Shown: piece by piece, positions 17,742 to 58,254 of the stretch | Layout: each line of letters starts with the position of its first letter | How positions within the stretch are numbered: the stretch's first letter is position 1 | Source of the DNA: Chrysomallon squamiferum | Lineage: Eukaryota; Animalia; Mollusca | Reading direction: 5' to 3' | Assembly: GCA_012295275.1 (NCBI GenBank) | Contig: CM022677.1 | Location: 12,152,001-12,216,000, forward strand | DNA length: 64,000 bases | Position numbers and translations under genes: made by a program | The notes under the pieces: generated by a model | Told to the model about the DNA's origin: nothing | What the model saw: the letters and a program-made list of their open reading frames with translations, nothing else | Databases searched by the model: none

Positions 17742-18499
17742 GTAAGTTATTTGTTTTTAATTTGATAAAGTAATAGATTTTATTTATTTTAAATTATATT
17801 CTTTGTTCCAGTTGTGTTTTTATATAATAATTATTCCATTAAAGAATTATGTGGTATGTATAACTGTAAAATTAGGAAAGAAAAAATAATTTTCTATTTT
17901 AATATCACAGTTTTATATTTTTATATATAAAATGTCAGCAGTGCTAATCATTATGGAGTTTTAATCTGATATATGAGATAGGCTATTTCTTAAGTTGGTG
18001 ATGTAGTTCCATATTGGCATATCTCTGTTTTACATTAGTGATGGTGACCATCTTGGATTTTGGGCTTAAAAATGTGTTACCTAAGATTTTTATTTACTTC
18101 TGAACCAAGCGAAGTCAAAATGATCACTCACTATCGCAATTTTGGCATCTGATTCCTATGGAACTGTGAAATTCATGCATGGTGGTCTAAATTATACAAA
18201 AAAGACAAGCGTAAATTTCTGGCCTGAAGTATGGAACTTTGCCCATTTGTTTCCTTATTCCGTAAAATATATTGTCAAGTTGAAATATGTGAAAACTTCA
18301 AGCATTTACTTACATCCTAGTTAAATGAAATGAATACAGAGTGTGTATGTTTGAGTGATAATCATATTTCTCTACACCTTTATATTTTGTGTTAAGAACC
18401 ATGTCCAGTTTGTATTAGGCATATTTGTTTTAAAATGTCATGTCAAAAATGAAGAATGATGGTAACAGCCTTTGCCTTTTCTTTCTTGTAATTTGAGTA

Positions 18500-20340: not shown

Positions 20341-21935
20341 ACAAAATAAATGGTACCTATGTGATCTGTTAAACAATCATTATCACTAAGCACATAAATC
20401 ATTTCACACCATTGTTGATTTCACCAAAGATTTCTGTCAAATTTGCTTTGTTACTGGTATTATTATTATCTTTTTTTAAACAGTGGGTTTTAATATATTT
20501 GACCAATTATCATTGACACTGTGCTCTGATTTTACATAATGCACATATCAGTTTTGTGTGACAACCACATTGAAATAAGAATTACAATTGTATATGTTAC
20601 AGGAATTTAGATGGGATTTCAAAATTAAATCGGTTTTCAGACACAGGTTAGAGTAACTTAGTGATTAATACTGTTGACTCAGTTTTGATGGTAATGGCAT
20701 TTATCAACATTTGTGTCTGAACTGTTTAGTGTGTAAATATGAGGGGTGTTCACCTGGTTTTATTTCATCATAAATATACGAGTGTAAACAAGTGTTTGGT
20801 AATATTTGCAGTGCCACTTTTCATTTATTCAAATTGGAGTTACCCAATTGCATTGCAATATAGTTTACACTATCTGTAGATCCAGAATCCATATTCTAGC
20901 AATTTAGAGCAAGTTTTATCTGACAGCTATCTCATAAATATGCAAATCATATTGTTATATATTTCAAATTAATTTTGGACCTATAATGCTGTATCTTACC
21001 AATTTAAAACAGTTTAGTGTTAGGTAGATGGCATTGGAAAAAAAAGACAACTGGGAAAAGTCAGCTGAAAAAACAAAACAAAAACCAACCAACAAAAACA
21101 ATGACTGGAAATATGAAAAAAAAAGAACTGTGCCACATATTACAACCATTATAACACTTGAGACATATCTTATATAATAAAAGTTTTTACAATCTACATT
21201 TAATAGATATTGCCAGATATTTGTATTTTGTGTGTAAATCAAATATTTTTCATGGTGTAATGAAAATGAAAACCATTACAATAAAATCATATAAAATGTA
21301 TTAATAACTGATTTGTTAAAAAAATACAAGAAAGAAAACAACAAAAATTCATATTTTACACACAAAATTTATTTTAAATAAAATGACACTTGTTTAAACA
21401 AGAGGCTGATCATTGTAAATTAGGAGATTTAAAAAAAAATATATTCTGAATTTTACACTGGAAATGTCTTCAAGTGTTCATAAAAGAAATATGTTAAACT
21501 GAAGATCTAAAATTAATTCTAGAAAATGTGTATTTAATTAGTAATAAATAAACAAAAAAGAAAGCAAAAACAATAATTACATAAAAATCATGTTTAGAAG
21601 GCAACATCTGTACACTCAGAAATGTTTTAAAATTACAGAGGTAAAGGTTTCCTAGAATAATTGTATATCCCAAGTAGAACATTATAACAATATAACAATA
21701 TATATAATCTAGTACAATTTTTACTAAATTGTCTTAAACACTTCTTTTGCTGACTTTCTTATTTTCTGCAAAAATAACAAGTTGCCCATTTTTGTGACAT
21801 ATCTGCTTCATTGAAATAGGGATTCTTTATTTCATTATTATTTTTTTTATATATATATATTTTCATTTAAAATCTGATAAATTTTTTACACCATAAGGAA
21901 TAGTACAGTGAATTTTCTTTATCTTCATTTTCCAG

Positions 21936-22274
21936 CTCCAGTTAATTATACAATCACAGAAGTTTCTGGTTCAAGGCCAAACTCATTTAACATGACCGAG
22001 GGAGACTCTGCTGTTTTTACCTGTGTTGTACAGGGAGCCAAACCAGCACCAAATGAGACACAGATCTTGTGGTACGTAGACAGTAACAAGCTTCCTGTCA
22101 GCATCACTGGATCTCCCACTACTACTGACAGACTGACAACATTAAGTGTGACGTACACAGCCAGCAGAGAACATGATGGTCAGAAAGTTTTCTGTGCTGC
22201 TGAAAATAACTTGATGATTGACCAAAGTATCCCTGCTGTCAGCTCAAGTAACAAAATTGAACTACATATACAAA
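21936..22274 (+). CDS. Gene A exon: C2-like (CD80/nephrin-type) Ig domain
   Basis: tttccag| ... CAA A|gtgatc, 339 nt, phase 1-1. EGDSAVFTCVVQGAKPAP..ILWYVD..REHDGQKVFCAAEN. Confidence 0.9.
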
Positions 22275-22346
22275 GTGATCACCATTTTTTCTTTGTATTT
22301 TATTTCTTACCTTGTGTAAAATGAAGAAGTAGTTTCAAATGTAATA

Positions 22347-22415
<69 letters not shown>

Positions 22416-22976
22416 TATGGTTTTTAGTAACAAGTCTGAAAGTAACCAGCACCTAACAAATACTGTTTATTTGAAATGTATGATTTGTAACATTTTGATA
22501 TTAACGATGATTTAGATTTGTTGTACAGAATTGATTCGGTGTGTTAACTGTAAAATAGTGTGCATGTGCTTTAAGATTAATTAAATCTCACTGTAATGGA
22601 ACAAATATCAGGAATATTCTTCAGAGAATGATTTGTTGACCTATTCAGAAATTATTCAGGCAGCGAGATCTTGAAACATGACCAGATGAATAATTATGTC
22701 CCAGTCAGTAAGTTAATTTTGATACCAGAGTCTATTCTTACTGGCTTCATTGCAGAGTTTTATTTGGCTTTGAATAACATAAACAAATTAAAATATGGCA
22801 AATTAGAAACAGTTTGATCAAATTTAGTGACAGGTCTGGTATATTTTCATTTATTGACATAGAAAATGATAGATCATTTTGATAGGGACAGGAACATTTT
22901 TTATTTCAAGACTTTAATTTTTTAAATAAAACTGCAAGTGGTGGATGGACCAGTGAATTACATTTTTCCTTCTTAG

Positions 22977-23614
22977 CAGAAAAAAGAAATTCAACAAATG
23001 TTCCTACAACAACTCGAAACCTGGGATCAGGTTCTGGCTGTAATGTAGTTTGTATTATCCTCATTACAGTTATCAGTGTCACAGGTCTTTGTATAATCAT
23101 AACATGCTGTCTGATACCACTAAGAAACCAAAACACAAAGAAAAATGATAAAACTACAAATATTGAACTGAACAGTAAAATGAACACTGAAAAGTCTGAA
23201 ACAGGTTTCTGTTGATATCAAAGCAGAAGAAAAGTGTAACATTCAAGAGAACACAGACAAAACACATGACACTGAAGGTGTAGAAACTTCACAGTCTGTC
23301 AAAGATAGGATTGGTAATAATCTTCACACAATATGCCTGGTAACCATGGAAGTGATGAAGATAATGAAAGTTCTGAAGATTACTCATATAATCAGACAAA
23401 TGTAAAACCTGCAAATCAACCAGTCAGTAAAGATGTCTGTGAAGAACACACAAGATCTGAAGTTTGTCAACAGTCAGTCACTGATTCACTGAATAAAACT
23501 GAAGTGAGCAACAATACAGCAGAGAGCCAACATCCAACCAGACAGAATCACAATAATGTTGATCATCAGAAAACAAAACGTATTACTACTATTGATGTGA
23601 AAATCAAATTATAA
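22977..23614 (+). CDS. Gene A terminal exon TM1: stalk, TM and cytoplasmic tail (tail disrupted)
   Basis: tcttag|CA, phase 1: EKRNSTNVPTTTRNLGSGSGCNVVCIILITVISVTGLCIIITCCLIPLRNQ. A 2-bp deletion relative to B gives TGA at 23213-23215. After a further 1-bp deletion near 23320 the acidic ancestral tail resumes as ORF 23333-23614. Confidence 0.8.
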
Positions 23615-23917
23615 ACAAATGAAGCAGTTTCAAAGTTAATTTGTTTTTTATTCCAGACTTTTTATTTGCTTCAGCTCAGTACACTTAGCTACATTCTTCA
23701 TTATTTCAGATAATTTCTAGAAGCCAGCGATTGTATTGTGGATTCTGCTTAACTAATCAAGGAATAGCTTTATTTCTATCTTTTTTGCTAATTCTGATAT
23801 AAGCAAAATAAAAAAGCTTTTAAAAGAAGTTTATACAATGTTGACTGTTTTAGTTCCACTCTGAGTAATATGCTTATTAACATAGATAAAGTTACAGCTT
23901 AATGCTTGTCTTTCACA

Positions 23918-23952
<35 letters not shown>

Positions 23953-25488
23953 GAGATAAATGCAAGTCTGCTGCTTTATTATACTGTAAAACCTTTTATA
24001 AACACTTTTTAACAGTTTTGAATATAATGTTTGCAGTAAGAACTTCCATGACAGATTAAAATATATTAACTAAAATTGAGAAAAACCTTGAAACAAATTT
24101 ATTTTCTCTTTCATTCTTTCTTTTCTTCTTCACTAGATCATAGAGCATCACTATTACTGTTATATACCTGGTTTTTATATATGTAAAGTTTCACCAATAC
24201 ATATGTTGAGTATGTATGGTTTGAACCCAGAAATTACCAGTTGTTGGCCTGCTCTGACAGTGTGTTTTGTTGTGGAATGTCCTGTATGGATGTTTTAATG
24301 AGACAGACCAGAATGTTTACATTTGATCTGATTATATTTCTGATTTATTATCTGAAATTATAATTTATAAATTAAATATTAAGGGTACTTGTCTAGTTTT
24401 AGTAATCACTGTTTGCATCACCTTGTCCTTTGATATTATAGTAATAATAATTTTATTATTAATATTAATATTTATTGGATATTTTTCTTTTTCTTTTTTA
24501 AAATGTATTTTCTCCACTTCACTTGTTTTTACCATACTAAAGTTTAATTCATAAACATTATTTATTTTATTCATATTAATGTGTTTATATTAGAATCAAC
24601 ATGAACAGAAACAACACCATCAAGCAGTAAGTAACGTAATCACATTGTTAGCCCTAACCTTGTGCTAATCATTCATGTAACCTCAGTTCCCCTTCCACTG
24701 GTTTTAATAAAAAAAACTGAAATTTTATTTTGCAAAATCACTAATTAATTTTAATAAAAATAATTATTATAATTATAATATTTGTGTTGGTGATTAATAT
24801 AATTTGTCTGATAAAGTCCAGTTTGAAAATTTACATAATTTTTTATATTATTTTACTATTTAGCTATAAAACTGTGTTAATTATTATTATATTAATAGGT
24901 AATTGTATATGAATACATGAAGTGTATATATAGATTAGTTAAATAACTGTCACTTGGTTGGAGTCTTACATATTGTTACATCTCATCTCCTCCTTTACTC
25001 CTAAAATAAAAATAAAATATTTTTTATTACATTAAACTTATACTTTAAAATTAATAACTTCAAAATCTCCTTTTTAAATTAGCTTTATTTACAATAATAC
25101 AATTCAGTATTGCTAATCATTGGATGTGAGTAATTTTTAGCCATGCTTTCCCATCATACATGTGTTCAAGCATGCTTGTATTGGTCACTAATTGTATTTA
25201 TAATTAATGCTGTGGCATATTTAGCTGCTTGTTTCTAAGTTTCTGGCTGTTTTAAAATATTAAGATCATACAGTTTATCTTGCTGAATAAAAGTCTTTAC
25301 TCAGACCTCTGTTTAAAGTTCTATATCATGGCCAGTGTAGTTATGACTATACAAAATGTTTCCTATATACATGAAGTCCCTGTTAAATACAAAGCATGAA
25401 ACCCAGACTTTTTATTTTTTTTTTTTTTTTATTTTAAGATATTTACTCAAAATTACTTTGAAATGTCATTCTTAGATTTATGTTTTTG

Positions 25489-26568
25489 TTTGTATCTGTT
25501 AGAGGATGAGTCATTACAATATTTACATGGGTGAAACTTCATGTTAATTCATTCATTACAATAGCAGTTTAGGAAGCTGGTCATATTTGGTAACTACCAG
25601 ATTAGTATTCCTTTTTACTTATTTTTCTATTTATTGATAGTTTTCATATAGTTTAAAAATTGTGTTCATTTTTAAATGTTTTAATGTATTGTAAAATAAT
25701 TTACAACAGCAGAAACAAGACAGTCAGTCAGTAAGTGTTTGTATACATAGATACATGTGAGTAATCCTTCCTTTAACAAGCTTGTAATTATTTAAGTAAT
25801 AGATTGTATTTAGAATTGTTTTCTGTGACAATGTTTTATTCCATCTTCTGTTTCACACAAAACAGAGGCAAAACTGAAATCATGTAAGTATAAGGATCAC
25901 ATTAAATAGAATGATAATATAATTAAAAATAATCTTCAGTTCAGTTTTGAACTTTGATAATGATACTAAAACATCATCAAATAAATAGATGTAATAATTT
26001 TCTTTATTAAGTCAGCATTGACTGGTTTTGTTATATTATACATTTTACCCCATACTTTATTCCTGTTAATTTTTTTATTTTTTTTTTTTTTTTTTTTGTT
26101 AACTATTACTAACTGCAAATTGTGCCTGAGAATAATTAAGCTGGCTTGTAATGAGGGATGCAGATAACAACTGGACATCTATTTGACACGATATGGCCAT
26201 CAAAGGTCACATTTCATTATAGCAAAACAGAGGACAGAAAATGTACATAAACTAACAATACAATCAGCTAGACAAGAGCATTTTTAACTATCGTATCAGT
26301 CCAGTTATAACCACTGAAAATGATGCATCTAAAACTGTGTTACTGTCCTTGTTGTCTATTAATAACATTTGCAGTTATAACTCAGTTATAAGTTTTATAT
26401 TTGGTATTTGGAACATGATTAATGGTATTTACACAACGTTTAAGAATTTGTAGATTGGTAGTGTTACCAAATATGACCAGCTTCCTAAACTGCTATTGTA
26501 ATGAATGAATTAACATGAAGTTTCACCCATGTAAATATTGTAATGACTCATCCTCTAACAGATACAAA
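25489..26568. repeat. 106-bp inverted repeat pair (25489-25594 / 26463-26568)
   Basis: tttgtatctgttagaggatgag...catatttggtaac is the reverse complement of gttaccaaatatg...ctctaacagatacaaa; no mismatch seen by eye. Confidence 0.9.
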
Positions 26569-28260: not shown

Positions 28261-28362
28261 CTGAAGTCTGTGTTTGTGACTGCACAGTGGTTCTTAGTGT
28301 GGTTCTGGCTGTCTGGATGGTTGTTGTAGTTGTCTACTTATTTCTGTGTCTGACCCTCCTGA
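28261..28362 (+). CDS. Candidate alternative TM exon TM2
   Basis: ttattttcag| ... CTG A|gtaagt, 102 nt, phase 1-1: EVCVCDCTVVLSVVLAVWMVVVVVYLFLCLTLL. Confidence 0.75.
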
Positions 28363-29321: not shown

Positions 29322-29423
29322 GCAGTTCGTGTAAAAGCGATGTTTATGTGGCAGGGGCAGTTTTCTGTGCTTTGTCTCTGCTCTGTGGAGCAGTGGTTGT
29401 CATTGTTGTACTGTTACGGAGAG
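29322..29423 (+). CDS. Candidate alternative TM exon TM3
   Basis: gatttcag| ... AGA G|gtaggt, 102 nt, phase 1-1: SSCKSDVYVAGAVFCALSLLCGAVVVIVVLLRR, with a basic stop-transfer motif. Confidence 0.8.
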
Positions 29424-30172: not shown

Positions 30173-30206
30173 ATTCCTGGAATCTTACAGGTCAACCATC
30201 AGATGG
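30173..30206 (+). CDS. Candidate short cytoplasmic micro-exon
   Basis: cttttcag|AT TCC TGG ... GAT GG|gtaagt, reading DSWNLTGQPSDG. A possible terminal acceptor ttttcag|T TAG lies at 30591. Confidence 0.5.
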
Positions 30207-30290: not shown

Positions 30291-32899
30291 GACAGATTAA
30301 ACAGATGCTCACAAATACACATAGATAAACTTTATTTTGTCTTTCTTTTGTTTGTGATGAAAACACCACGTAGGCTGCCACCATTTGAAAAAACTATAAC
30401 AGAAACTGAAAAGCAAAAGAAAAAGAAATCGAAAAAGGAGCAGGGAAAAGAGAAAGGATTCAGAGGAAGGAAATAATGATAACGAGAGAGAAGAAAAATC
30501 TAAAGAATGAACAGAAAATCAGAAACTTTAAAATGTCAGTTACTTATGATCAGAGATTGATGATCATCAATCTTTTAAACTTATTTTCAGTTAGCAAATA
30601 CATTAATATTATAAATTTTAAATGATACTTCTCAGTTAAATCATTTTGTTAAGGCATCCAAGGCTTGTAATTTAGTTTATTGATTGGAAGCTAAATTCCT
30701 GTTAAAATGAAAAGGCAAATGTCAATGCTAAGTGAAAATTAAATTTAAAAAAATGTATTATCATCTGAAACAAAAATATCAATTAAAATGTCTTACATAT
30801 GTCATCATTTTTGTCGGTTAGTTTTGAGTAGTGGAAAACTCAGATCAGATTTGATGATACTGACGATGCAAAACAAAGCTGATTCTTGTCAGTTAACATT
30901 TTTTAGTTGTGTTTTTTCTGCTACCTGAACATTTTTATCTTTTAATGTTTTAATAATTTAACTCAGAAGTTGGTATTAAATTTTTATTTTATTTATTTTT
31001 TCTAATACTATATAAAGTAATCAAGGAAGTAAAATCTAAACTGAAAATAAAACTGACAAATACTGCTTTGTCATTATAACAACCTTAATAATAGTGATAA
31101 TAGAATAACGTTCGTTGTACAAGTCTTTAACAACGGTACTTTCATCATTTCTGATGTAAGTGACAGGTTGACAATTAGAGCGTAATGGTGTAATTGTGTG
31201 GGTGTGTATTTATATATGTAATGTATTTGTTATGTTTGTGTTTGTCATGGTGTTGCTTGTGAGTGTATGCACACGCGTGAACATATATATCTATGCATAC
31301 AAAATGTTAACAAAAGTAATTACTGAAATAAAATTATAACTAGAAATTATGTTAGGAGGTTGGTGGAAATTATATGGAAGATATAGCAACTCCCCCAGCT
31401 ATGTTACCCACCACTATTAAAGTGTGTTCCCATGAGTATAATGTCAAATGAGTATAATTGCAAACTGAAGGTTTTTTAAAGTGTTAGACAGAAAAGCTTC
31501 AAGCACTGACTGCTGCACGTTATATAGTTCAATAGTATAGTTCAAGACACTACGCCCAGCATACAGTGTTACTTACTGCTGTGTTTTGTATAGCAATTAC
31601 TTCAAATAACGCAATTCAGTATGAATAAAGACTTTTGTAGACTACTACGCCAGAAACCTTTTTGGATCCAGCACTGATTTTAAAATGTTATCATTTCGTG
31701 TTGGGTAGATTGTACATAATGTGACTGCGCCCTTTCATATTTTCACATCAAACTTCTGTTTCTCATGAACTAACTGAGAAAATGAAATATTGTATTTGGT
31801 GCTTCGTAAACCAAATATAAAATTTCCCACTGAATTGTTTAATTAATATTATGTCACGACTTTAAAAAGAAAACAACAATAATTAACAACTGAGGTTACA
31901 AGTGTAAATCACAAAATATTGTTGGATCAAAAGAAATTATCTTTACACCAAAACTAGCATGTAAGTAAACTAAGCTGAAATCAATAACATGACACCGAAT
32001 CAATTTGTTTATCAAGTTTAAATGTTCTACAGAATTATCCAAACTGCAGTTAGAATTAAAATCTGTTTTCTTTGAAGATTCAGGTTTGTATTTTTTATAA
32101 AATCAGGAGCGTATTAATGGACTTTTAATGTTTTAACCATTCTGTGGTGTATACAATAAAGATCAGATTGTTTTGATGATTTAGGTTTACTTAAGATATT
32201 TGAAATGTAAAACATACTAGGATGTATTCTAGAAGAAAAGAAATGGTTTAATTTCTTGTGGACAAATCAGCTCCCTTCTGTACCATTAGATATATTTTAC
32301 AGTGATTTAGGGTAAGGCTTTCCTTGTGAAATGCTGTCTGTTACCTGTATTAATAATTTCAGTTTGCCTTCGAATTAAAAAAAAAGTCAGAAATTAGTTG
32401 TCATAGTTCTCCTTTTCATATCCAGTGATATTCCGAAACATAATAAATGATCTCATTAGACATAATTTTACAAGTTATGGATTTTCAAGTTATGTTTGTA
32501 AATTGGTGGTATACTATTCATTCAAATAACTGAGAATATGTAAACTTCTGTATCAGTACTTCAAGTATTAAATCTAACGAAAAGAGAGATTAAGAAATAA
32601 AAAAATAGCAAAATGTGGATGGTTGATTATTAAGGACAATATTAAAAAGCTAGTGTTTTCAAAAATCTGGATATCAAAATAATGCAATATGCTTTCACAT
32701 TATATAATGTTCTTTGAAGTTTGGACATACAGCAATTATATGATATTGCATAAAATGCTAGAAACACAAACATTTTTGGTTTAGAGTAGTTTCATAATGC
32801 GTATGTAGTGTATATGAATTGTCGATGATTATTGCTATTTTATTTTGGAGAAAAAAATTTGAACTTGCAACAAAAAATATGATTGACATATTTACTGAA

Positions 32900-33096
32900 A
32901 TTTCCTTCACCACATATTGTCAGAAGCATATGGTTTAGAAATGGAACAAACATTCAACACACAGGATTTAACTTGTCGTTGACACCTACACATGAAGACA
33001 ATGGAGTCTGGTACAAATGTTCAGCTGGGAATCTCTTCACAGACAGAAGTGGACAACAAAGCCCTGAATCTAATTCTCTTCACATCAATGTATATT
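32900..33096 (+). CDS. Module C: 3' part of an Ig C2-like exon (first Cys not found)
   Basis: FPSPHIVRSIWFRNG..LSLTPTHEDNGVWYKCSAGN..SNSLHINVY, ending T|gtaagt in phase 1. Confidence 0.75.
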
Positions 33097-33495
33097 GTAA
33101 GTTGTTAACTAAATTTTGTTTTAATTCTTTTATATTTACTTATTTATTTATTTATTTATTTATAATGTTATTTGTTTGTTTGATTGTTTGTTCATTATGA
33201 CTTTCACATTAATTAAATAAGTAAGTAAATAATGTTAAAATTATTTATAAAGTTAGTTGAAGTAATATTTGATACTTCCATTGGATATGCTGATCTCATC
33301 CCTACAAATATTAAACAGAAACACGTACATACTAATTCATCTGCCTTTGATAATACTTTCTCATTATGTAATAACTGTTATTCTGGCTTCACGTTTATAG
33401 TTTTCTGTGGAATAATTCAAGTTCTGTACATTGTAAACTATGTTTTCTGTTTCCTCTTAGTTTATATTTTGTTACTTTTATTTCAATGTGTGTAG

Positions 33496-33756
33496 ATGCA
33501 CCCAGAGTGAGAATTTTATCAGAGAGTCACATCAGAGTTGAACTGGGAAAACTTGTGATACTACGCTGTACAGCTGACAGTAATCCAGACAGTGTTGTAT
33601 TTGAATGGCGAACTGGTACAAAACACCTCACTGACGGTTCTCTGTTTCAAATCTCCTCATTTCAACAGTCAGACCAAGGAGAGTACACGTGTTCAGCAAC
33701 TTCAAAAACTTCTTTTAACACTTCAATGTCAGGATCTGCCAGTGTCATTGTTACAG
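33496..33756 (+). CDS. Module C: I-set/C2 Ig exon
   Basis: tgtag| ... ACA G|gtaact, 261 nt, phase 1-1. YAPRV..VILRCTADSNP..FEW..FQISSFQQSDQGEYTCSA. Confidence 0.9.
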
Positions 33757-34035: not shown

Positions 34036-34338
34036 TTCTTGAATCAGCTCCTGAATGGTGTTACTGCACAAATGTGTTAGAAACTTCAGTAGATCTCAAG
34101 TGGAAGTACGACACAAACAAGTTCACTAGATTCACTGTTGAACAACGCTTGTCTACTGAAGACCAGTCTATCAGTCTGCAAGTGTCAGACAATAAGACAC
34201 ACGACAAGACTTTTTCTTTACACATTTCTCATCTCAAGTCCAATTCTTCCTACCACTTTCAAATTTACTCTTCTGCAAATAAAAATGACAGCCGTTACTG
34301 TTTGACTCTTTGTACCACTTTAACAACAATAAATTATA
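34036..34338 (+). CDS. Module C: fibronectin type III exon
   Basis: tttag| ... TAT A|gtaagt, 303 nt, phase 1-1. SAPE..NVLETSVDLKW..FTVE..ISHLKSNSSYHFQIYS. Confidence 0.85.
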
Positions 34339-34646
34339 GTAAGTAAAATAGCATATACAGTTTTCGATTCTTCATCTAAACTTTCAGCAAAATATTTACT
34401 TTTATTTTTTTTTATGTGTTTTTTGTTTGTTTGTTTGTTTCTTTCTTTCTTTGGTTTTGTTGGTGGTTTTTTGCAGTACTTATTTACAGGTTCTGGTGAA
34501 TCTAACATTGTCTAACTGTTTACGTTATTTAGTGAAAGATCTTTAGAAGAAAGAATTGTAATAATTATAAAAACAAATAAAGCAAACTTAAACGTTAAAG
34601 CGGATCTTTTATTTATGTGTTGAACTTGTTATTGTAATTACTGTAG

Positions 34647-34753
34647 AAGAATCTTCGTCCATGGCACAATTGGAACTGGAATTGGTCTAGTAGCAGGAAT
34701 ACTTCTGCTCTGCTTTCGTGCAACAATTATTCTACTTATCCTCAGGAGAAGAG
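34647..34753 (+). CDS. Module C: TM exon, out of frame with the FN3 exon by 1 nt
   Basis: Acceptor ctgtag|. TM frame reads GTIGTGIGLVAGILLLCFRATIILLILRRR. Phase-1 entry instead reads KESSSMAQLELELV* (TAG 34688-34690). Donor position uncertain. Confidence 0.7.
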
Positions 34754-35066
34754 GTTGCACCATCCGTAGTCAGTTAAATTTTGAACTCATTCAGTAGTTA
34801 TTATTTTGTTGTTTTGAATATTTCATATTTATTTTATTGTAGTTTTTAATTATTTATTTTAAAATTATCTTCTTTCTTACTTTTTATTTTTAATATTTTT
34901 TCTGTCTCAAACTTTATGTGTGTGTGTGTGATTGTGTTCATTTATTTATTTGTATAATTGTTTCTTTCTTTTATCATTGGCCGTTTTAAAACAAATCAGA
35001 TCCTATTATTTCAATGTAAGAGTACTTATTTAGCTTGTAAAATACAACTATAAATATATCTTACAG

Positions 35067-35096
35067 GTTCAGACAGCAAAAATGAAAATGAAATAA
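35067..35096 (+). CDS. Module C: 30-nt cytoplasmic micro-exon
   Basis: cttacag|GT TCA GAC ... ATA A|gtgagt, phase 1-1: GSDSKNENEI. Confidence 0.7.
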   Translation, partial: VQTAKMKMK

Positions 35097-35603
35097 GTGA
35101 GTACTTTGTTAAAATATCTTTTTTAGCTCCTAGTTTTACTAGAGCACTTTCCTTTGCATAGAAGCTGTCTCTTTAATACATAAAACGATACAAATTGAAG
35201 TAGATCTTGAAACACAAGTCAAGATGATTGCGGAAATTCAAAATGAGATGCCAATTTTTCATACACATCAACGAATCTTATGCTTAAACCCATACACACA
35301 AAGAGGGAGGCAGGTACATACAATCATATATTTTATTCACTTCGTGAAGAGCTTGAACAATTAATAAGTAATTTCAACAAAGACTGAAATAACATTATCA
35401 GGTTTGTTTTATATACAATAGTTTTGTAAATTCAAAGAAACTTTGGTAAATTAAATGAACTAAAAATAAGCGCTTAAGATTTTTTTTCCAAATGCCGGTA
35501 ACAATTGCTGTAATAAATATTTTCTAGAAAATATAACGGAAAAATACTATATCAAAATGTGTACAAAGAAAATGTGTTTATGAAAATATTAATAAATTTA
35601 TAG

Positions 35604-35702
35604 AACATTCTCAAATACCTACAACTCAGTACGAGCGTCTACAATCACGTGATGCACCTGCGTATGAAAAGCTGAAGGTGTCTGATAACAGACCGAGTTC
35701 AG
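35604..35702 (+). CDS. Module C: cytoplasmic exon encoding an ITAM-like motif
   Basis: tttatag|AA CAT ... TCA G|gtaata, 99 nt, phase 1-1: KHSQIPTTQYERLQSRDAPAYEKLKVSDNRPSS. Confidence 0.8.
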
Positions 35703-35856
35703 GTAATAACATTTATTTAGAATTATTCACTTTTATTTATCATATTAAAATTTATCCAACTACGATGACAATTGATAATAACTTATTCCTATGTTGAAAT
35801 AAAATTTGTATTTGTAAAGAAAATCTGAAATGTTTTTATTCCCTATTCGTTATCAG

Positions 35857-35942
35857 GAGTTTTGTATGCCAATAATAATAATAATAATAATAATGATGAT
35901 GATGATGATAATAATCATAAGCATATTTTTGAAACGTGTTAG
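35857..35942 (+). CDS. Module C: candidate terminal exon
   Basis: ttatcag|GA GTT TTG TAT GCC AAT, reading GVLYAN; then read-through of an (AAT)/(GAT) microsatellite to TAG at 35940-35942. Confidence 0.55.
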
Positions 35943-38376
35943 AAATCAGACTTGAAGCTATACATAACAAATGGATTTTCATGTGCTGAGAACGATACAA
36001 AACTAAAACAGCATCTAAATCAGCACTTTGATTTGTTGTAACTTTTGTTTAATTAATCTCTTATCAAGACGATAGACCTAAAGGGATGCAACTCTTGTCT
36101 GATATATTACAACGTTTTCAAGTTAACTGGAGATTACGATTTGCCTGATCTAGAAGCATATTCTATAATTATAACAAAACCCAAAAGTTTTTATTTTGGT
36201 TTTCTCTTTGTACCATTGAATATGTGTGGGCTTTTTTTTTAAGACAAAATTCAAACAAAATATATTGTCCATTATAAAGAAAGTTTCTATGGTATGTATG
36301 TGTTCAGAATGTGTACACGTGCATGTCAATTTAATAATTTTATATTATTATACAAATACAAACACGTCACATGGAACGGTTATCATAAATATGATACGTG
36401 ATGAAAGATGAAAAGAACTCCACTGACAAATAGAAAGAATATAATAAACCAAATTATAATTAGATTATTTATTAATATTCAAAACATTTAAATTTAAATT
36501 TTATTTAATAAATAGAAACGTTGCAGATAAAGTTGTATGACTTTAAGTAAATCAATTAATAACAAATGAAATTTGGCAATTGTGTTCTGTTACTTAAACG
36601 AAAGGATATAATAAAATAAAGTGGCGCTAAATAATAACTAAAGTGAAATGAATAATATATGAAAATTGTATCGCTTTTATACAATGACAGCGTGTACTAA
36701 TGATGTGACACAATAATTTAACATATTTACTTAACATGTTTACTGGGGGGCTTTCCGCAACAGTCATGAAACAATGATACTATAATACGTACTTCCCTTC
36801 ATTCTATAAACATGTGCTTAATTAATTTCCATAGCTAACACTAGACTGACCGAGAATAATTTTATCAAAGTCAGAAAGAAATAGTCTGTCTATAATAGAG
36901 AGAGCGCTGTAGTAATAACGTGACACAATAAAATAACGTACAGAGAGCACAAACTCATTCACCCGTAGAAAAGAGGTTTTGTCACAACATACTAAACATT
37001 ATTGTGAATAAAATTCATGTACACAAAACGCAAAACCTTCATTCAGTTTGTGTCCCGGTTAGAGCTGGTTTTGTGTTCAAACAGCTTAAACTTTTGTCAC
37101 TGTATAATTATGTAAACTGCACGACATATCTGTGACAAGTGAGTGAATCGTGCTGTGAAAACCCAGTTTTAACTAAACTGTTCCGAATGAGGTAAATATT
37201 ACAGTATGCAACGTATTTGAATATTTTAAAAAATGATCTTCATTTCGTAAAATACAATGTTGACTCATTACTATAATTGTCGATCTTTTTAAACAAATGC
37301 CATTTTTAAAATACCTCGATTCTTATAGGGACCGTTCTGAAATGAGATTATCTCTAACAAAACATGCTTCATAATAATTATATCATTCCTTGTATTCCAA
37401 ATACTAAGTCTCAGTTTTCTAAATGATGATATATATTTAGAAGGGATACATTATAAAAATCTGGTCGGTAATTCGTCTTTTTTCTGTTTTTTCTTCTTTT
37501 TTTATCTGAACAGTATAAAATAAACTCCTCAAAATCTTCACAGATTTTTTGCTCAAAGCCTTCAAGACACAGTCTATACTTATGATCATGCCGAGAAGTG
37601 ATATGGCTAAACAACTTTGATTATGATTAACAAAGGTGGAGGTAAAGTGAGACAGTGTAAACTGCTCCCTCAATGCGGATTTAATCACTTAAATATAAAT
37701 ATAAACCAATGAGACAGTAGCAGCTACAATAAATTATACAATGGGCGCACTGGGAAGAATTTGTCTTGTTATCTATGATACCTCGGCTCTGCACTTTCCG
37801 TCAATAGCCCCTTTCTACTTACAACACTTGTAGCATTGCTATATTGTTAGGAATCTCAAAACGCTCTCCTAATTACCTATGAGAGCGGTACGCTTTGCTC
37901 GCTCTATAAGTTATACGCCTCTTTTCGCTCTGCAAATAATCACATGAAAAGATTTCTTCGCGCTGATCTATAGAAATAGCCTGAATAGTGGACACACCGA
38001 AGTTCTTTTGCAAATTATCGTTTAGAAAAAAATGTATGTCGTAAACCTATTTTATTTTATTTTTATTTTACGAAGATCAGTTAACGTATCATTAATTAGT
38101 AATCACATTTGTAATATGACTCATCAATAATTTTATTTTATGACAACGACAACAACAACTGTAATAATAGATTATGCAGTATCATATTCAGATGAAAACA
38201 GGTCAAGATGAGCTTTTATTTTTTATTACGAGCTTGTGAAATTCAGTGTTCTGCAGTGCTAGAGAAATGTACAGTGGCAGTTTGAGATGGTGTAGTGTTA
38301 CAACTCACTGACACTCAGTGCTGAATTTTACAAAGAGCAAAGCAAGGCAGTGAGAAACTAGGTCAGATTCCAGAAA

Positions 38377-39048: not shown

Positions 39049-39439
39049 TCTGTCGAAGATAAAAAGTCATTGTTTATCTATAAGACAGTTTCATTAGACA
39101 CATTTCTTTTCCGCAAACTTACTAAAGATTTTTGTTATCATACTGATTCTTACATATATGCAATCCTGAGATTATCTAGTCTCTATATATTAAATACGAA
39201 AAGATAAAATAACGACAAATATTAAATAAATATGTCTTCATAATTATAATCAGTAAATAAACTTAGCTGCCGATATATGCAAATCATTAAAGATTTCTCA
39301 CTGTCCAAAGGAAAATATGCGATGAGGAATTCTAAAGGAAATTTTTAATGTTTTAGTTACGTTAATTAGCGGCCAAGATAAGACACGTTTTGTGTGACAA
39401 ACTAACTCAGCTCTGAAATGTGTCTGCCCGAGTAGCTAC

Positions 39440-39660
39440 TTCTTTCTTTAATTCCGCGGATTTCACCGACGTCCGCAGTAATCTAATACACGGGCTTCGC
39501 GGCTGAGACGAGGCGAGTTCAAGTCTGGTTCGGGAAGCGACAAGCGGGCGGTTGACAAGTTTGATGAACTTGGAGGTCAAGGGACAGACCTTGACACTGT
39601 GGCCTTTCTTTGACACGCAGTGATAGCGTCATTAGGTAGCGTAAGTTAAGTTGTATAGGC
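39440..39660 (+). mobile_element. GC-rich island, possible tRNA-derived SINE (copy at ~57810-58040)
   Basis: CpG-rich stretch with a B-box-like GAGTTCAAGTC, followed by a (TA)(TG) tail. No convincing cloverleaf. Confidence 0.35.
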
Positions 39661-39661
39661 C

Positions 39662-39715
<54 letters not shown>

Positions 39716-39887
39716 TGTGTGTATGTGTTAAATATACATAAATAAACTGCACTCCTTCTGATGTATTATTTATCTATTATTATACATACATCGCACAATT
39801 TATAACTGACCAGTCCTTGTCACACTGTTTTATTCCCCTAGACAATTAGCACTTTAAACACTTTATTATCAGTAACTATTATTATTA

Positions 39888-39970
<83 letters not shown>

Positions 39971-40868
39971 TTCTTTATTTTTTCTTTATTTGGCATGATT
40001 ACAGTGGTAAAGTTGTTCACTGTAGTGCCTCTTTTCCTTAATGTCATAAGAATGTTTTTATTTTATTTAATGGTTAATCCAAGTCTGACTGATGAACTTT
40101 ATACAGCTTAGATTAAAATAGAACCTACACTATGGCTAGAGTGCTGTAGTAATAATGTGACACAGCAAGTTAACCTAGATAAAGTACAACTCGTGTACCG
40201 GGAAGAAACATGTTTAGTCACAACATTCACAATGGCGCTGTTGAGATATTTACTTGTTTCTCTTACGATTATCAGCACAGATAGGTTTTTTTAAAGTTTT
40301 ACACTAGAAAAGTCGCCTGACATTTATGTAACACTAGCCTGTACGCTGAGACTCAACCTGTGTTATTTATTTCAAATAATTAGTGTTTGGTTCTTCATTG
40401 TAAAATAATTTTTGTGATATTAGAGAGACATATTCAAGTTTTCCGAATGTTTCATACTTTGGATAAAAACTTGTATGTTTTTTGTTAGTGTTATTTGTCA
40501 CGGACCGTTCTCTGTACGCCTACAGAACAGAGAAATAATAATCACTATTTCCTATTCTACGACTGTCAGTATTTAGTATTAATTTATAAAGTAATCTGAG
40601 GTGAGTATGTTCCAACAAGATAAATTAAGATTACTGCCTCCTGCTCGGAGCTTTGTTAAAACTGGTAACTCTATTGTCATGTAATATGACCATATATGGC
40701 AACTGCTACCTGGAGTTTATAGGAAACATTCTCAGAATATAGAGGTTATTCTCTGCCCTTTATAGTACAAGACTTTAGTTAACTGTTAATGAAGATGGTG
40801 ACACTTTTTGTGAGGTTTTTGTTTTGGTTTGTTATGATATTTCAATTTCGTATTGATTAAATATAATA

Positions 40869-41525
40869 CAGTGGTACCTTGACTTACGAGTTTAATTGGT
40901 TCCGTGACCGAGCTCGTATCTCAGTTTGCTCGTATATCCAATCAATTTTCCCAACTGAAATTAATTGAAATACCATTAATCCGTTCCAGACCTTCCAAAA
41001 CCACCCCTATGTTTTGTAACGTGTTTTTAAATAAGAAAAATGTATTTATAAATGACAAATTTTGTTTCAAACCAAAATAAAAGAGAGTGTAAACTGGATT
41101 TAACTTAGAGATCAGACAAATTATTTTAACGCCTTTGGCTGGAGTTACAACCTTTATCGACTCTTTTAGCTTCAGCATGGTGCATATCGTAGAAGTACTA
41201 CGCTCGTGCTGCCTAGCCAAGTCGACTACATGCACACCTCGCTCATGTCTCGCTTCTTCTTCTCAGCACCGTCCTTTTCATTCACTTTCTTAATAGCCAT
41301 GTTCAGAAAAAGAAATTTGGTATAATACTGCACAACACGCGAGCAGAACACAACAAAGATGCTTCCGCGCCGAGGTAACCATGTGAAGTGAGACGCTGGA
41401 TGCTGGCCGGATATTGTGTTGTTCGCTGCGCCTACTAGCGACGGCGTCTCTGAAACTCGCTCGTAACTCGGATTTTGGCTCGCAACTCAAAGCATCGAAT
41501 CGACCGGACGACTGCTCGTAAGTTA
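40869..41525 (-). mobile_element. Internally deleted Tigger/pogo element
   Basis: TA|CAGTGGTACCTTGACTTACGAG end, partial inverted ctcgtaagt at ~41515, and a psq-HTH fragment VVDLARQHERSTSTICTMLKLKESIK. Confidence 0.85.
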
Positions 41526-44044
41526 CTTCAGTATTTATGAAATTTAGTAAATACAATATTCTTTTCTCTCTCTCTACATTAATCTTTCCATAGTCAGTGG
41601 TTTCATACTGAAAAATGAACTAGATCTGATTTATAAGTGGTTAAGAAGCAATGACCAGAAAATAGGTTGACCGAATACACAACGCCTAAATCCTAAATAC
41701 GGAAGTCGTTATTTGATATCGATATTCTAAAGAATGAAGTTGTATTATTAATTATTCATTATCATTACAAATAAATCAAATGTTTAAAAAACATTTACGA
41801 TAATATCGGCTCGAAATACAGTTTCAACGGATCTGATGTAAATATGTCTGTCCATCCATAGTCTATCTGTATGTCTGTCTCTCTGTATTTATACCAGTTT
41901 CTTTGTTAATTTTTATATGTTAATATGTGAAGTGCATTAATTGTGAGATCTTCGGTACTGACAGATACGCGCAGTGTACACATCCGGCCTGACTCAGTAT
42001 CGTCGCAGGCTCAGTCTAAGAGTGAACAAACAAACTACACCCGCCTGACACCATTACATAGCATCACAAGTACCACAGACTGACCAGTTTAACAAACGTA
42101 TACACTTTTTATTGAAACTTCTGTCTTCTGGAACGTACTTGTAATGTGCTCGCTTTGGATATAAGATAATGTACAAGCAGAACATAATATATTCTTTTAT
42201 CAGGGATTATCTTAATTAAATATCTGCCTAAATTAGAAATGCTACAGCAAGAGAGAATAAAATGGCACAAAGAGCAGGACCTAAGATCATCAGTCAGCAA
42301 ATATGTGTGGTCACTACTTCGAAATGTCTGTCAGTGTGCCTTGTGATTAATGATTGAATTCATTTGAACAATGCACTTTCCAACGCTGATACCTGTAGAA
42401 TGATAACTCCTAATTAAATCATTATCAATCATGCTAACATTGCATAAAATGTTTGGTATTTGGCAAAAACTGTGTTACTGATGCAGTTGAAAAAAGGATG
42501 CTCTCAGCTTGTATCAACACAAAATTACTACAAAGCCTTAAGATTGGTCTATTTGGAGGGTGTCAGGTGTGTGTTTACTTAAGGTTTGTTTTCTGAACTT
42601 TTTAAAAGAGTATCTATGACAACAAATATTCAGGTCGCCATTAGCAGGTAAGATTACAATTTAGGTAGGACAGACATTAAGAATTAAAAAACAATAATCA
42701 GTAATAAATAAACAGCAACCATGTTACCATCAGTCAAAGTCCTTCAGTAGCAAACCCATCAAATACTTCTGTGAAAAAAAAAAAAAAAAATTAAGTTGCC
42801 ATGGTGCCTCTACTTTAAGGGAAATGTTTGCATTGATGCAATTACAACATTCGTCTTTAAAAAAAATTAAAATTCTCCCCTGTGTGTATGTAATTTTTTT
42901 CAATGCAGGCCTTATTACAAATGAAATGTCCACTATTTCACAGTTATATTATAAGAACTGAGGTGTCTTCCACCTGCAGAAAAGACTTCACTACTATATA
43001 ATAACATTTGGCATGTGTGTGGCAGTTTTAAGGATCCAAAAGTGGGTCTTGTTGGCATTAAAATGTAAATCAGTTACACTAGGACATTTCTTTGATCATT
43101 TAATATTAGTAGAAAGATGCTGAGGTATCTCCTCACCTTTTAATTTTGTAAAATATAAATACTACGGTTTACTCAACCAAACAAAATCCCAACCTTTCAG
43201 TTTCATTTGTATATCCAATATAAATGTATTTGCATACCAAAAGCATTAGAAAACCTTGATGAACTATTTCAGTAAAGTTTCTTAAATATTTCTGTGCAAC
43301 AGAATGTTTTCACAGGAAAGAGCACTCAACAAGTCATTTTTATTATTATAAAGTCATCAGAGGAACTAAGACTGTTCCTCGATGCTGAGGAAAAATGCGG
43401 CTGCTTTTTTTTTTTTTAAAGTTTTATCCCCTGAATATTTAAGATTTTCTAATTTATCCCTTTCATCATTTAGATCTTTTCACTAATTAATTTGGTAAAA
43501 CAACTTTTCATAGTACAAAGAGAAGGGAAGTTTTGAGTTCTCAAAGATTTAAATTTTAATCATGTGAATGGTCTAGCAGCAATGGATATTTACCAACTTG
43601 GGTTCACTTAACAATGTAAGTGTACTTTGCAGATATATGGAACAAAATTGAGATTTGTTTGAAATGGTAACAGCATGCAAATCGCAAATTAAGTATTAAT
43701 ATCATGGAATTATTCTACTGAAAACCTAGAAATTGTGATCACTGAAATCAGGATAAAAAGATCTACAGTTATAGTTAGGTTGTATTTCCAAAACAGAAAG
43801 TCACTTTGGAATTATCTACTACCGGTGCTTACACTACAAAATTAAATTTGGAATCCAGTGAATGTTAGAAAATGGAATCCATTTCTTTTATTTTAAATAA
43901 AATTGACATGTGACCTATGGAAATGGCAATACTCCCTTAGAAATAACTGTATTAGCACATTTTTTTTCTAATATTGAAATAATTTAGCAAAATGTAGAAA
44001 AATAACAACCAACTGAAAAAATTGTATTGTGTATATTTTTGCAG

Positions 44045-44350
44045 GTTTGATGACCTTAACAGGTGTTGCCAGTGGTGTGTTGAGTCAGATCTACACATTC
44101 CAGTGTTCTGTATCAGGCAGCATCACTTCACCTGTCAGCTTTCTAAGAAATGGAAATACTGTGTGTTTACTCCTGTCACACTGTGGTGAAGTCAGTGTTC
44201 TGCCTGGTTACCCTTGTACATGTGCTGGTCAGACTGGAACTTCTAAACTCCTCAATCTGACAATAAACAGTGTCAGTCTTGAAGATGAAGCTACCTGGAC
44301 ATGTACCTATGATACAAGTGCTAGCAACAGATTTGATTTACCAGTTTTGA
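44045..44350 (+). CDS. Gene B exon: Cys-rich V-like Ig domain
   Basis: tttgcag| ... TTG A|gtaagt, 306 nt, phase 1-1; same six Cys as gene A. Confidence 0.9.
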
Positions 44351-44951
44351 GTAAGTTATTTGTTTTTAATATGATAAAATAATACATTTTATTTATTTTA
44401 AATGTTATTCTTTGTTCTAGCTACCATTTATTGTGGGGTTCTTTTATTCCATTAAAGAATTATGTTTTATGTTACAGCAAGTTGGATATAAAATGAAAAT
44501 ATGTGAAACTGTAAAGTCAGCAAAGACAACATATTTTTTTTTAATTTTAATTTTTTATACAGCCTTTACAAAGAAGGAAAGAAAAAAAACTTACATCAAG
44601 GTATTAATTTATTATATATATATATATATAAATGTCAACAATGTTAATCATTATGTAACTTGAATTGATATATATATATATATAAATGATATATACAAGA
44701 TAGAGGCTAACATCACTGAAGTTGGTGAAGTAGTTCCAAAGATAGGCCATTTTCAAAAATGTATGGCATCTGATTACTATAGGATTTCATATTTGGTGAT
44801 CTACAACATAACAAAAAATAAAACAACAAAATATTTCTGTTCTAAGAATGGAACTTTAACCATTAGTTTACTTATTCTGTAAAATACATGAGTTGAAATA
44901 TGCAAAAAATCCAAGCACTTATTTACATCCTAATTAAATAAAATGAATACA

Positions 44952-45046
<95 letters not shown>

Positions 45047-47002
45047 GTTAATCATATTTGTCCACCTCTGTATATTTTGTGTTATGAACCATATCCAGTT
45101 TCTATTACACACATTTGTTTTAAAATGTCATGTTAAAAAAAGAATGATAGTTGTTAAATGTAACATATGGTGCTGGTGTTTGTGTCTCTTCATTCTGTAC
45201 CATGTTTAATGATGGTAACACTCACATTAATGTTTTCAGCAGATGTGCCATTTGATGAAACCACACCTACTGATAAAATTTAATGTTACTGTTATTTTCA
45301 AAATTTTACCTTCCTGTCAGTTATGTGGCCTAGCTCCTTCAATTTTACAATACTTTTTTTTTCTTTCAAATCTTTAATAACCCCTAGATCTTTTGGTTCA
45401 CTTATATTACAGCCTTTACAAAGAAGGAAAGAAAAAAAACCTCGTCTTTGTTGAAAGTTCACAGAAGAATCCTCAGTAGCTTGAATAAATGATGATATGT
45501 ATCCTATAAGTTATCCTTCAGTCTCTTTCACAAGTTTTCCTGAAGTGTGTAAATATGGGGGTATTCAGCTGATTTTATGGCATCATAAATATATACTAAT
45601 TCATGTCATTCCCCTAAAGTATAAAAAGTGTTTAATAATATATGTAGAGCCATTTTTCATTTATTCAAATTTGGAATTACCCAATTGCATTGCAATATAT
45701 TTTGCACTATCTGTAGACCAAGAATCTATATTCTAGCAATTTAGAGCAAGTTGTAACTGGCAGCTATGTAATAAATATGCAAATCACATTGTTATATATT
45801 TCAAACTGTTTTTGGCCTATAATACAGTTTAATGTTAGGTAGATGGCACTGAAAAAAAAGACAACCAGGAAAAGTTAGCTGAAAAAACAAATAATAAAAA
45901 AATAAAGCAACAAAGAAAAAGAATGACTGTGGAAATAAGGAAAAAAAGAACTGTGCCACATATATATATTATATGGGACATTATACACTTGAGACATATC
46001 TTATAGTAATAAAAGTTTTTAGTATCTGCTTTTAATAGATATTGCCAGGTATGATAATATTTGTATTTTGTGTGTAATACAAATATTTTTCATGGTGTAA
46101 TGAAAATGAAAAACAATACAATAAAATCATGTAAAATGTATTTAATAACTGATTTGTTAAAAAAAAAAATACAAAGAAAACAACAAAAAATTCATATTTT
46201 ACACACACAAAATTTACTTTAAATAAAATGGCACTTGTTTAAACAAGAGGCTGATCATTGTAAATTAGGAGATTTAAAAAAATATATATGTTCTGAATTT
46301 TACACTGGAAATGTCTTCAAGTGTTCATAAAAGAAATATGTTAAACTGAAGATCTAGAAAATGTGTATTCAAATTTAAATTATAATAAATAAACAAAAAA
46401 AGCAAAAACAATAATTACATAAAAATCATATCATGTATAGAAGGCAGCATCTGTACACTCAGAAATGTTTTAAATTTACAGAGGTAAAGGTTTCCTAGAA
46501 TAATTTTATATCCAAAGAAAAACATTATAACAATATATATAATCTAGTACAATTTTTACTAAATTGTCTTAAACACTTCTTAATGCCAACTTTCTTACTT
46601 TCTACAAAAGTAAAAATTTGCTTTTTTGTGACATATCAGCTTCATTGAAACAGGGATTTTTTTTATTTCATTATTATTTTTATATACATATTTTTTAATT
46701 CATCAATTGTTTAATTTTTATATATATATTTTTGATCTGATTGAAGACAAACCTATTTGAAATTATTAAAATGTGCAGTCATAAGCTGATAATAATATAG
46801 TTTTGCCATTGTAGCAGATACATTCAGCATTTTTACCAATTAATTAAAATAACTGTTTTAAGATCATTTAATAAGAAATATATCTTGTTTTCTGTTTATT
46901 AATATTTGCTATTTGAAACAAACTTAATAATTATCTGTGCTTTATGGTTTGATTACATCATAAGGAATAGGACAGTGAATTTTCTTTATCTTCATTTTCC
47001 AG

Positions 47003-47341
47003 CTCCAGTTAATTATACAATCACAGAAGTTTCTGGATCAAGGCCAAACTCATTTAACATCACCGAGGGAGACTCTGCTGTTTTTACCTGTGTTGTACAG
47101 GGAGCCAAACCAGCACCGACTGTTTCACAGATCTTGTGGTACGTAGACAGTAACAAGCTTCCTGTCAGCATCACTGGATCTCCAACTACTACTGACACAC
47201 TGACAACATCAAATGTGACATACACAGCCAGCAGAGAACATGATGGTCAGAAAGTTTTCTGTGCTGCTGAAAATAAGTTGATGATTGACCAAAGTATCCC
47301 TGCTGTCAGCTCAAGTAACAAAATTGAACTACATATACAAA
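47003..47341 (+). CDS. Gene B exon: C2-like Ig domain
   Basis: tttccag| ... CAA A|gtgatc, 339 nt; 8 aa differences from gene A. Confidence 0.9.
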
Positions 47342-47407
47342 GTGATCACCATTTTTTCTTTGTATTTTATTTCTCACCTTGTGTAAAATGTAAAAGTAGT
47401 TTCATAT

Positions 47408-47458
<51 letters not shown>

Positions 47459-48059
47459 ATCTTTATGTTTGTATATGTGTGTGTACATGCATGTATGGTT
47501 TTTAGTAACAAGTCTGAAAGTAACCAGCACCTAACAAATACTGTTTATTTGAAATGTATGATTTGTAACATTTTGATATTAACGATGATTTAGATTAATG
47601 TACAGAACTGATTCAGTGCTGTTAACTGTAAAATAGTGTGCATGTGCTTTAAGAATAAATCTCACTACAATGGAACAAATATCAGGAATATCTGAGTTTT
47701 CTTCACAGAATGATTTGTTGACCTATTCAGAAATTATTCAGTGAGATCTGGGTTTACGCCTTAAAACATGACCAGATCAATAATTATTCCCAGGCAGTAA
47801 GTTAATTTTGATACCAGAGTCTATTCTTACTGGCTTTGTTGCAGAGTTTTATTTGGCTTTGAATAACATGAACAAATTAAAATATGGCAAATTAGAAACA
47901 GTTTGATCAAATTTAGTGACAGGTCTGGTATATTTTCATTTGTGACAGCCATGACAGATCATTTTGATAGGGTGAAGAATTTTTTTTTTCCAGACTTTAA
48001 TTTTTTAAATAAAACTGCTAGTAGTGGATGGATCAGTGAATGACATTTTTCCTTCTTAG

Positions 48060-48359
48060 CAGAGAAAAGAAATTCAACTAGAAATGTTCACAACAACTCG
48101 AAACCTGGGATCAGGTTCTGGCTGTAATTTAGTTTGTATTATCCTCATTACAGTTTTCACTCTCACAGGTCTTTGTATAATCATAACATGCTGTCTGATA
48201 TCACTAAGAAACCAAAACACAAAGAAAAATGATAAAACTACAAATATTGAACTGAGCAGTAAAATGAACACTGAAAAGTCTCAAACTGAGGTTTCTGTTG
48301 ATATCAAAGCAGAAGAAAAGTGTAACATTCAAGAGAACATTGACAAAAAAGCTCAATAA
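48060..48359 (+). CDS. Gene B TM1 exon, frameshifted before the TM and 3'-truncated
   Basis: cttag|CA in phase 1 reads EKRNSTRNVHNNSKPGIRFWL* (TAA 48125-48127). The TM frame survives as ORF 48084-48359. Homology with gene A ends near 48350. Confidence 0.75.
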   Translation, partial: QRKEIQLEMFTTTRNLGSGSGCNLVCIILITVFTLTGLCIIITCCLISLRNQNTKKNDKTTNIELSSKMNTEKSQTEVSVDIKAEEKCNIQENIDKKAQ

Positions 48360-58041: not shown

Positions 58042-58097
<56 letters not shown>

Positions 58098-58254
58098 AAT
58101 ATACATAAATAAACTGCACTCCTTCTGATGTATTATTTAGCTATTATTATACATACATCGCACAATTTATAACTGACCAGTCCTTGTCACACTGTTTTAT
58201 TCCCCTAGACAATTAGCACTTTAAACACTTTATTATCAGTAACTATTATTATTA

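Follow-up and report, generated by a model that had tools for sequence, protein, structure and literature searches.

Immunoglobulin (Ig) receptors that bear an ITAM of their own are, to our knowledge, already known in oyster and in Hydractinia, while the ectodomain of Draper is built of EGF repeats. In the oyster Crassostrea gigas, CgIgR combines five Ig domains, a transmembrane segment (TM) and an ITAM ending in PYEKL, and the accessible text of the source reports that it dimerises, interacts with CgSyk and drives ERK and phagocytosis (PMC6994640); the available portion of a review equates it with CgIgIT2 (PMC11999971). For Hydractinia, the accessible text on the Alr genes describes clustered members of the IgSF with Ig, Fn3-like, TM and tail portions, of which 6 bona fide and 8 putative ones carry ITAMs, together with 12 pseudogenes, some of which are expressed (10.1101/2022.03.04.482883). 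Here, we describe a locus of related layout in the mollusc Chrysomallon squamiferum, within a window of 64,000 nucleotides (contig CM022677.1, positions 12,152,001 to 12,216,000; coordinates below are window positions). We consider it probable that a YxxL-x7-YxxL pair, likely an ITAM, is conserved in a multi-copy gastropod Ig-FN3-TM family, and that the copy in the window is frameshifted ahead of the motif and likely a pseudogene.

The motif lies on the forward strand in a 99-nt exon with AG/GT bounds (35604-35702), at which RNA contigs begin at 35602, the same position given a 2-nt AG ambiguity. Translation of 35630-35674 (+) in phase 1 of this exon gives YERLQSRDAPAYEKL, bearing out the sequence-only reading of an ITAM-type pair, since YERL-x7-YEKL has the two YxxL/I half-sites at a spacing of 6-8 residues that identify an ITAM. 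That reading also held that the exon was missing from the open reading frame track, whereas it lies inside an open stretch of the stop-to-stop list (35537-35797). The YxxL pattern of the first half-site holds in other copies, but its Arg does not: position 35636 is T in every contig compared across the four runs, giving Cys. The ITAM consensus quoted in the accessible text of PMC6994640 is D/ExxYxxL/I; where it calls for an acidic residue, at -3 relative to the first Tyr, the window copy and two homologs from Gigantopelta aegis (P0003 and P0004) have Thr. A Pfam search with the exon returned no families.

The pattern by itself proves little, as the six frames of the window, AT-rich animal DNA with a GC content of 25-36%, contain 64 strict matches, mostly in AT-rich or simple-repeat DNA. 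That count is what would favor a chance pattern in AT-rich DNA. When the exon itself was shuffled, however, the strict pattern was rare, appearing in 53 of 30,465 open nucleotide shuffles (out of 200,000 made) and in 165 of 200,000 codon shuffles. Together with the conservation of the pair in homologs from G. aegis and abalone and the occurrence of the exon in spliced RNA contigs, this makes chance an extremely improbable explanation.

A search with the Ig exon returned 5 proteins at 55-59% identity, every one of them from the vent snail G. aegis, and the ectodomain exons are 50-60% identical to P0003 (XP_041379358.1) and P0004 (XP_041379354.1), which share the Ig-Ig-FN3-TM layout of the window and have tails with YxxL-x7-YxxL. 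The Tyr and Leu pairs and the 7-residue spacing are thus kept in G. aegis homologs, the outcome expected if the motif proposed from the sequence is real. For these two close paralogs, identity to the window exon is concentrated in the motif (core 10/15 versus flank 3/16; Fisher p 0.009 each), with no significant excess in the core for P0024 and P0027 (5/15 versus 3-4/16). All four proteins carry the ITAM in their cytoplasmic tails, read in the same frame as the TM. Searching a representative set with the FN3-TM-tail portion of P0004 gave 53 matches, most to the FN3 part only and without a TM. A TM was present in 6 (P0003, P0016, P0024, P0027, P0050 and P0059), two of which lack a strict ITAM (P0050 and P0059), and three TM matches (two from G. 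aegis, one from Haliotis rufescens) align across the tail. In an alignment of 5 homologs from G. aegis and H. rufescens, obtained with a query that contained the tail, four tail Tyr, both Leu and the Asn of a YxN are invariant, in the order membrane-proximal Tyr, two YxxL and YxN just behind. The spacer of H. rufescens in this alignment is 12 residues, and two abalone proteins have spacers of 9 and 12.

To limit selection on the tail, we also ran a search in which the query was confined to the P0027 ectodomain, which yielded 38 proteins, 27 with a TM and 18 with tails of at least 40 aa. The strict ITAM occurs in 5 of the 18 tails versus 0.06 expected from shuffled tails, where all 5 are G. aegis paralogs, not independent, and include the query and P0024, the latter first found with a tail-containing query. 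One of the 18 tails has a spacer of 9 residues, and none has a strict ITIM. Among the C-termini of all 38, which are mostly paralogs of one species plus the query and hence not independent counts, YxxL/I-x7-YxxL/I occurs in 6 (including P0087 of H. asinina), YxxL-x7-YxxM in 7 and a trailing YxN in 15; most members fall outside the strict motif. Individual tails are more elaborate: P0076 of G. aegis carries four tandem Tyr-pair/YEN repeats, the last one alone forming a complete ITAM, and a subfamily of seven G. aegis proteins (P0066, P0068, P0069, P0071, P0081, P0083 and P0086) has YEGL-x7-YAKM followed by YEN, with His in place of the membrane-proximal Tyr, so that its SH2 specificity is possibly retuned. 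Beyond annotated proteins, a metagenome scan with the FN3 exon found 2 loci at 35% identity among 174 candidate stretches, and the TM and tail of P0004 reached a best score of 0.83 in the ESM Atlas, at the level of a lead (structure rows TM 0.30-0.40).

Given the known preferences of SH2 domains and sorting motifs, paired tyrosines of this kind can serve other partners. Rather than being a Syk-activating ITAM, the conserved pair might dock a different SH2 protein, of SHP2 type or, in the YxxM variants, PI3K p85; it might act as a tandem endocytic YxxPhi signal or engage Syk to inhibitory effect. Met in the second half-site of 7 of the 38 relatives, spacers that range from 7 to 12, the missing acidic residue at -3 and the suppression of NF-kB by amphioxus SYK, as given in the accessible text of PMC13344425, would all fit such a role. 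Yet the 7-residue spacer is kept in 13 of the 38, even where the second half-site has changed, and the pair closely resembles the oyster ITAM that is reported, in the text available, to recruit CgSyk (PMC6994640). We therefore consider a function other than that of a Syk-activating ITAM unlikely, though far from negligible, and retain the ITAM as the preferred reading for the family.

We next turn to the gene that precedes the motif. The Ig-Ig-FN3-TM layout proposed from the sequence is correct insofar as all of its exons lie upstream, but the first Ig is truncated and the TM exon is frameshifted. Only the 3' half of the first Ig exon is present (32931-33096, +): its N-terminal half, including the first Cys, is absent, an in-frame stop lies just upstream, tblastn aligns it with G. 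aegis proteins only from the Trp onward (58-62%) and an X2 RNA contig diverges from the window ahead of 32931. An I-set-like Ig exon of 261 nt in phase 1/1 (33496-33756, +; Pfam Ig_3, E 1.2e-10) and an FN3 exon of 303 nt with a GTAAGT donor (34036-34338, +; Pfam fn3, E 1.2e-7) follow; one of the two Ig exons is weak in Pfam, below the cut-off. The TM exon (34647-34768, +; 122 nt) has a readable hydrophobic TM frame but is one base short, with a frameshift near 34665 and a stop at 34688-34690 in the default frame, and is followed by a juxtamembrane cytoplasmic exon of 30 nt (35067-35096, +; AG/GTGAGT). Further upstream, a stretch reading YxC...NIVG (31894-31960, +), preceded by an in-frame TGA and ending at a GTAAGT donor, is probably the remnant of a decayed Ig exon; tblastn with P0001-P0005 gave no match to it, so we infer its Ig identity, and X1 RNA contigs depart from the window sequence behind 31960. 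None of the homologs' earlier exons, including the leader exon, was found nearby by tblastn. Domain searches identified only Ig and FN3 in the ectodomain and no EGF repeats. A charged TM residue for adaptor pairing was considered and rejected, as neither the RNA contigs nor most of the X5 depth keep the Arg at 34718 in the TM frame.

Splicing was assessed in contigs, those of four RNA runs from a single study and those of a further run, X5, of unrecorded type. The Ig-Ig junction (33096-33496) is present in RNA runs X1 and X3, the Ig-FN3 junction in all 4 RNA runs and the junction from FN3 to TM exon (34338 to 34647) in X3, while X2 and X3 contigs use the juxtamembrane exon. An X2 contig of 804 nt runs through FN3 to 34321 and then through 131 nt of other sequence, 35067-35093, a further 55 nt and 35602-35708. 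Its mismatches to the window, 8 over 288 FN3 bases and 7 over 107 ITAM-exon bases, mark it as a paralog or allele. By arithmetic, the distance between the starts of its FN3 and ITAM exons is 501 nt, a multiple of 3, where the frame is judged by length across 186 unaligned letters (131 + 55). The direct junction 35096/35604 that had been predicted does not appear in this contig, where 55 letters of different sequence separate 35093 from 35602; the contig has an additional tail exon of ~51 nt with no counterpart in the window. Two 17-nt motifs from the RNA loose ends had no window matches at 3 mismatches, and the intron (35097-35603) holds ten AG..GT in-frame candidates, none resembling the missing exon. 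By position, the extra exon would correspond to the segment of the homologs with the first tail Tyr. X5 contigs have loose ends at 35113 (35097-35113) that resemble a splice donor and intron missing from the window, which suggests that a genomic deletion removed the exon from this copy.

Behind the ITAM exon, contigs from X1, X2 and X3 continue to 35708, one X3 contig ends at 35702, and the loose ends of X1 and X2 contigs 3' of 35708 are sequence that is not in the window. A candidate last exon (35857-35942, +), encoding VLYAN and then an AAT/GAT repeat, has an AG acceptor and an open frame and is without RNA support: its junction 35702/35857 was not seen in the RNA contigs, a weak negative as the repeats at 35863-36000 were skipped. 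RNA contigs likewise give no cover over 35725-35785, which is weak evidence in that contigs show presence and not absence. VLYAN had been read as a Grb2-type YxN motif in the next exon. Such a YxN is indeed conserved in the family, but the homologs place it inside the ITAM exon, 3 residues behind the ITAM, and the window copy has SDN at this site (35681-35689, +; codon TCT), where Y364 and N366 are invariant in the 5-homolog alignment. The only X5 contig covering the site agrees with the window, so the SDN change may be common to several copies.

These observations converge on a copy that is likely a pseudogene. X3 splices from the consensus donor at 34338, and a TM exon of 122 nt joined to this donor brings translation to a stop at 34688, ahead of both TM helix and ITAM, so that the ITAM of the window copy is not in frame with a TM under default splicing. 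The frameshift, the truncated Ig exon and the missing tail exon, with introns retained, are lesions that a duplicated pseudogene would show. One extra base behind 34665 is found in one X3 RNA contig, at a low depth of 4.9, and in 5 X5 contigs (depth 485/851), and this longer form of the TM exon is evidence for an intact paralog. An activating receptor made by this gene copy, as originally proposed, is thus not supported: with a TM frameshift and a truncated Ig exon, no membrane receptor with an ITAM is expected from it.

Two other accounts of the frameshift were weighed. It could be an assembly error in a gene for an intact ITAM receptor, as frames are broken elsewhere in the window too, a near-duplicate adjoins a gap, and the window bases at 34260, 35159 and 35636 are absent from all of the X5 depth compared. 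The short TM form is nevertheless matched by an X5 contig over 34545-34836 (292 nt, depth 160, 1 difference, 0 gaps), and the truncated Ig exon has cover in the X1 RNA library. Since both the short form and the one-base-longer form occur in X5, taken as a DNA run, an assembly slip is improbable, although the X5 library is off record, possibly the window's own source, and so maybe not independent; we judge an assembly error very unlikely. Alternatively, the copy could be functional, with a weak donor 4 bases downstream of the one at the FN3 exon end (34342) or a cryptic acceptor at 34691 restoring the frame and distant upstream exons supplying the leader and Ig. Both routes leave an open frame through the ITAM, and an X1 RNA-library contig that spans 32789-33096 (3 differences, 1 gap) indicates that a like copy may be transcribed. 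These rescues, and skipping of the TM exon, work on paper and none was observed; X3 shows the junction from the consensus donor at 34338, and against a working copy also stand the truncated Ig exon, the failure to find a leader exon, the missing tail exon and the TM-frame Arg, which is replaced in RNA contigs. Moreover, DNA or read-through might account for the X1 cover, and one X1 junction joins the Ig exon out of frame. A functional copy is accordingly improbable, if somewhat less so than an assembly error, and the pseudogene remains our reading of this locus.

The out-of-frame X1 junction joins an upstream multi-TM gene (30206) to the Ig exon at 33489. As the equivalent splice in the window meets a stop at 33539, some transcripts may carry the Ig-receptor exons as 3' UTR. 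The upstream gene is itself expressed and spliced, with three TM-like, hydrophobic exons in succession followed by a short tail (28261-28362, 28646/28649-28744, 29322-29423 and 30173-30206, +); its junctions occur in X1-X3, and two exons tested matched no Pfam family. Elsewhere, the window holds a second tandem family with V-like Ig, C2 Ig, TM and polar tails (17348-23614, +; 44017-48359, +; 62492-62857, +; 10823-11454, -), whose tails at ~23200 and ~11130 differ in frame, so that some copies look frameshifted. The near-identical duplicate is formed by 39424-45596 and 57805-64000 (95-97%), the latter right after a 200-N gap (57594-57793), and represents either a recent tandem duplication or an uncollapsed haplotype. 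Older inverted duplications at 71-83% identity pair 3567-7265 with 53477-56600 and 8491-11467 with 22936-26311. Decayed ORFs at 138-863 (-), 13111-14038 (-), 41226-41619 (-) and 53554-55495 resemble DNA-transposon remnants.

While the proposal of an activating receptor with its own ITAM fails for the flagged copy, it carries over to the family, where conservation of the pair, an RNA contig in frame by length and the oyster precedent make an activating receptor set plausible. In intact members, the receptor would cluster once its Ig domains bind a ligand, a Src-family kinase would phosphorylate both tyrosines, and molluscan Syk could then dock on the phosphorylated pair through its tandem SH2 domains and lead to ERK and phagocytosis signalling; members with YxN, three residues downstream, might in addition recruit a Grb2-type adaptor. 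Binding of the tail pair by a Syk-family kinase, like the phosphorylation and output in this scheme, is extrapolated from general ITAM biology and from oyster CgIgR. A molluscan Syk is known from the accessible texts of PMC6994640 and PMC13344425, and Syk with CgIgR is a closer model than Draper/Shark, the one first suggested.

The G. aegis homologs are annotated only under uncharacterized, hemicentin-like or CEACAM-like names, with several relatives bearing the automatic name CEACAM5-like. In the available text of Lan et al., a 'CEACAM5' orthogroup (OG0000013) comprises 130 G. aegis genes and 101 of Chrysomallon squamiferum, but Lottia has 59 as well and Bathymodiolus 103, and four CEACAM5-like genes of G. 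aegis are enriched in its oesophageal gland (PMC7895826). The snail ITAM family may be this orthogroup, a link made by names only. The word ITAM has no occurrences in 10 supplementary files of PMC7895826, the accessible part of PMC7736800 has nothing on this receptor family, and a survey confined to the open-access literature showed no description of a gastropod Ig/ITAM receptor. As a tentative and rather doubtful extension, the 'CEACAM5-like' Ig expansion of vent snails could be a germline repertoire of dozens of activating ITAM/YxN receptors, with birth-and-death turnover, YxxL/YxxM tuning and no obvious ITIM partners, that would share its ITAM ancestry with CgIgR and serve Syk-dependent symbiont recognition and phagocytic control in the oesophageal gland. 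More immediately, the conserved tail offers a signalling hypothesis for a family that is now only generically annotated; should the family prove to be the one that expanded in symbiotic vent snails, it would bear on the policing of symbionts. As the flagged copy is likely dead, an intact paralog is the relevant one for function.

Of the known systems, Draper/Shark shares with the snail family a receptor-intrinsic ITAM in an invertebrate, but the snail receptors lack the EGF repeats by which a Draper/MEGF10 relative would be recognized. The Alr proteins, as far as the accessible text describes them, are likewise ITAM-bearing Ig receptors in a pseudogene-rich cluster, although they are cnidarian and have ITIM members, as opposed to none with a strict ITIM among the 18 snail tails. 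No Alr protein was recognizable among the named search matches, and nothing here links the snail family to allorecognition. CgIgR is, like the snail family, a single-pass mollusc receptor with an Ig ectodomain and its own ITAM, whose second half is similar (PYEKL versus AYEKL in the window); named search matches included no oyster protein. The snail family has the CgIgR-type layout of Ig ectodomain, TM and ITAM tail, with FN3 in addition. It differs from CgIgR, for which the accessible text describes no FN3 and a spacer of 8 residues (PMC6994640), in its membrane-proximal FN3, its mostly 7-residue spacer, its trailing YxN and its many paralogs. Together, these comparisons suggest that the snail family would work like CgIgR and the ITAM-bearing Alr proteins, a likeness of layout and motif.
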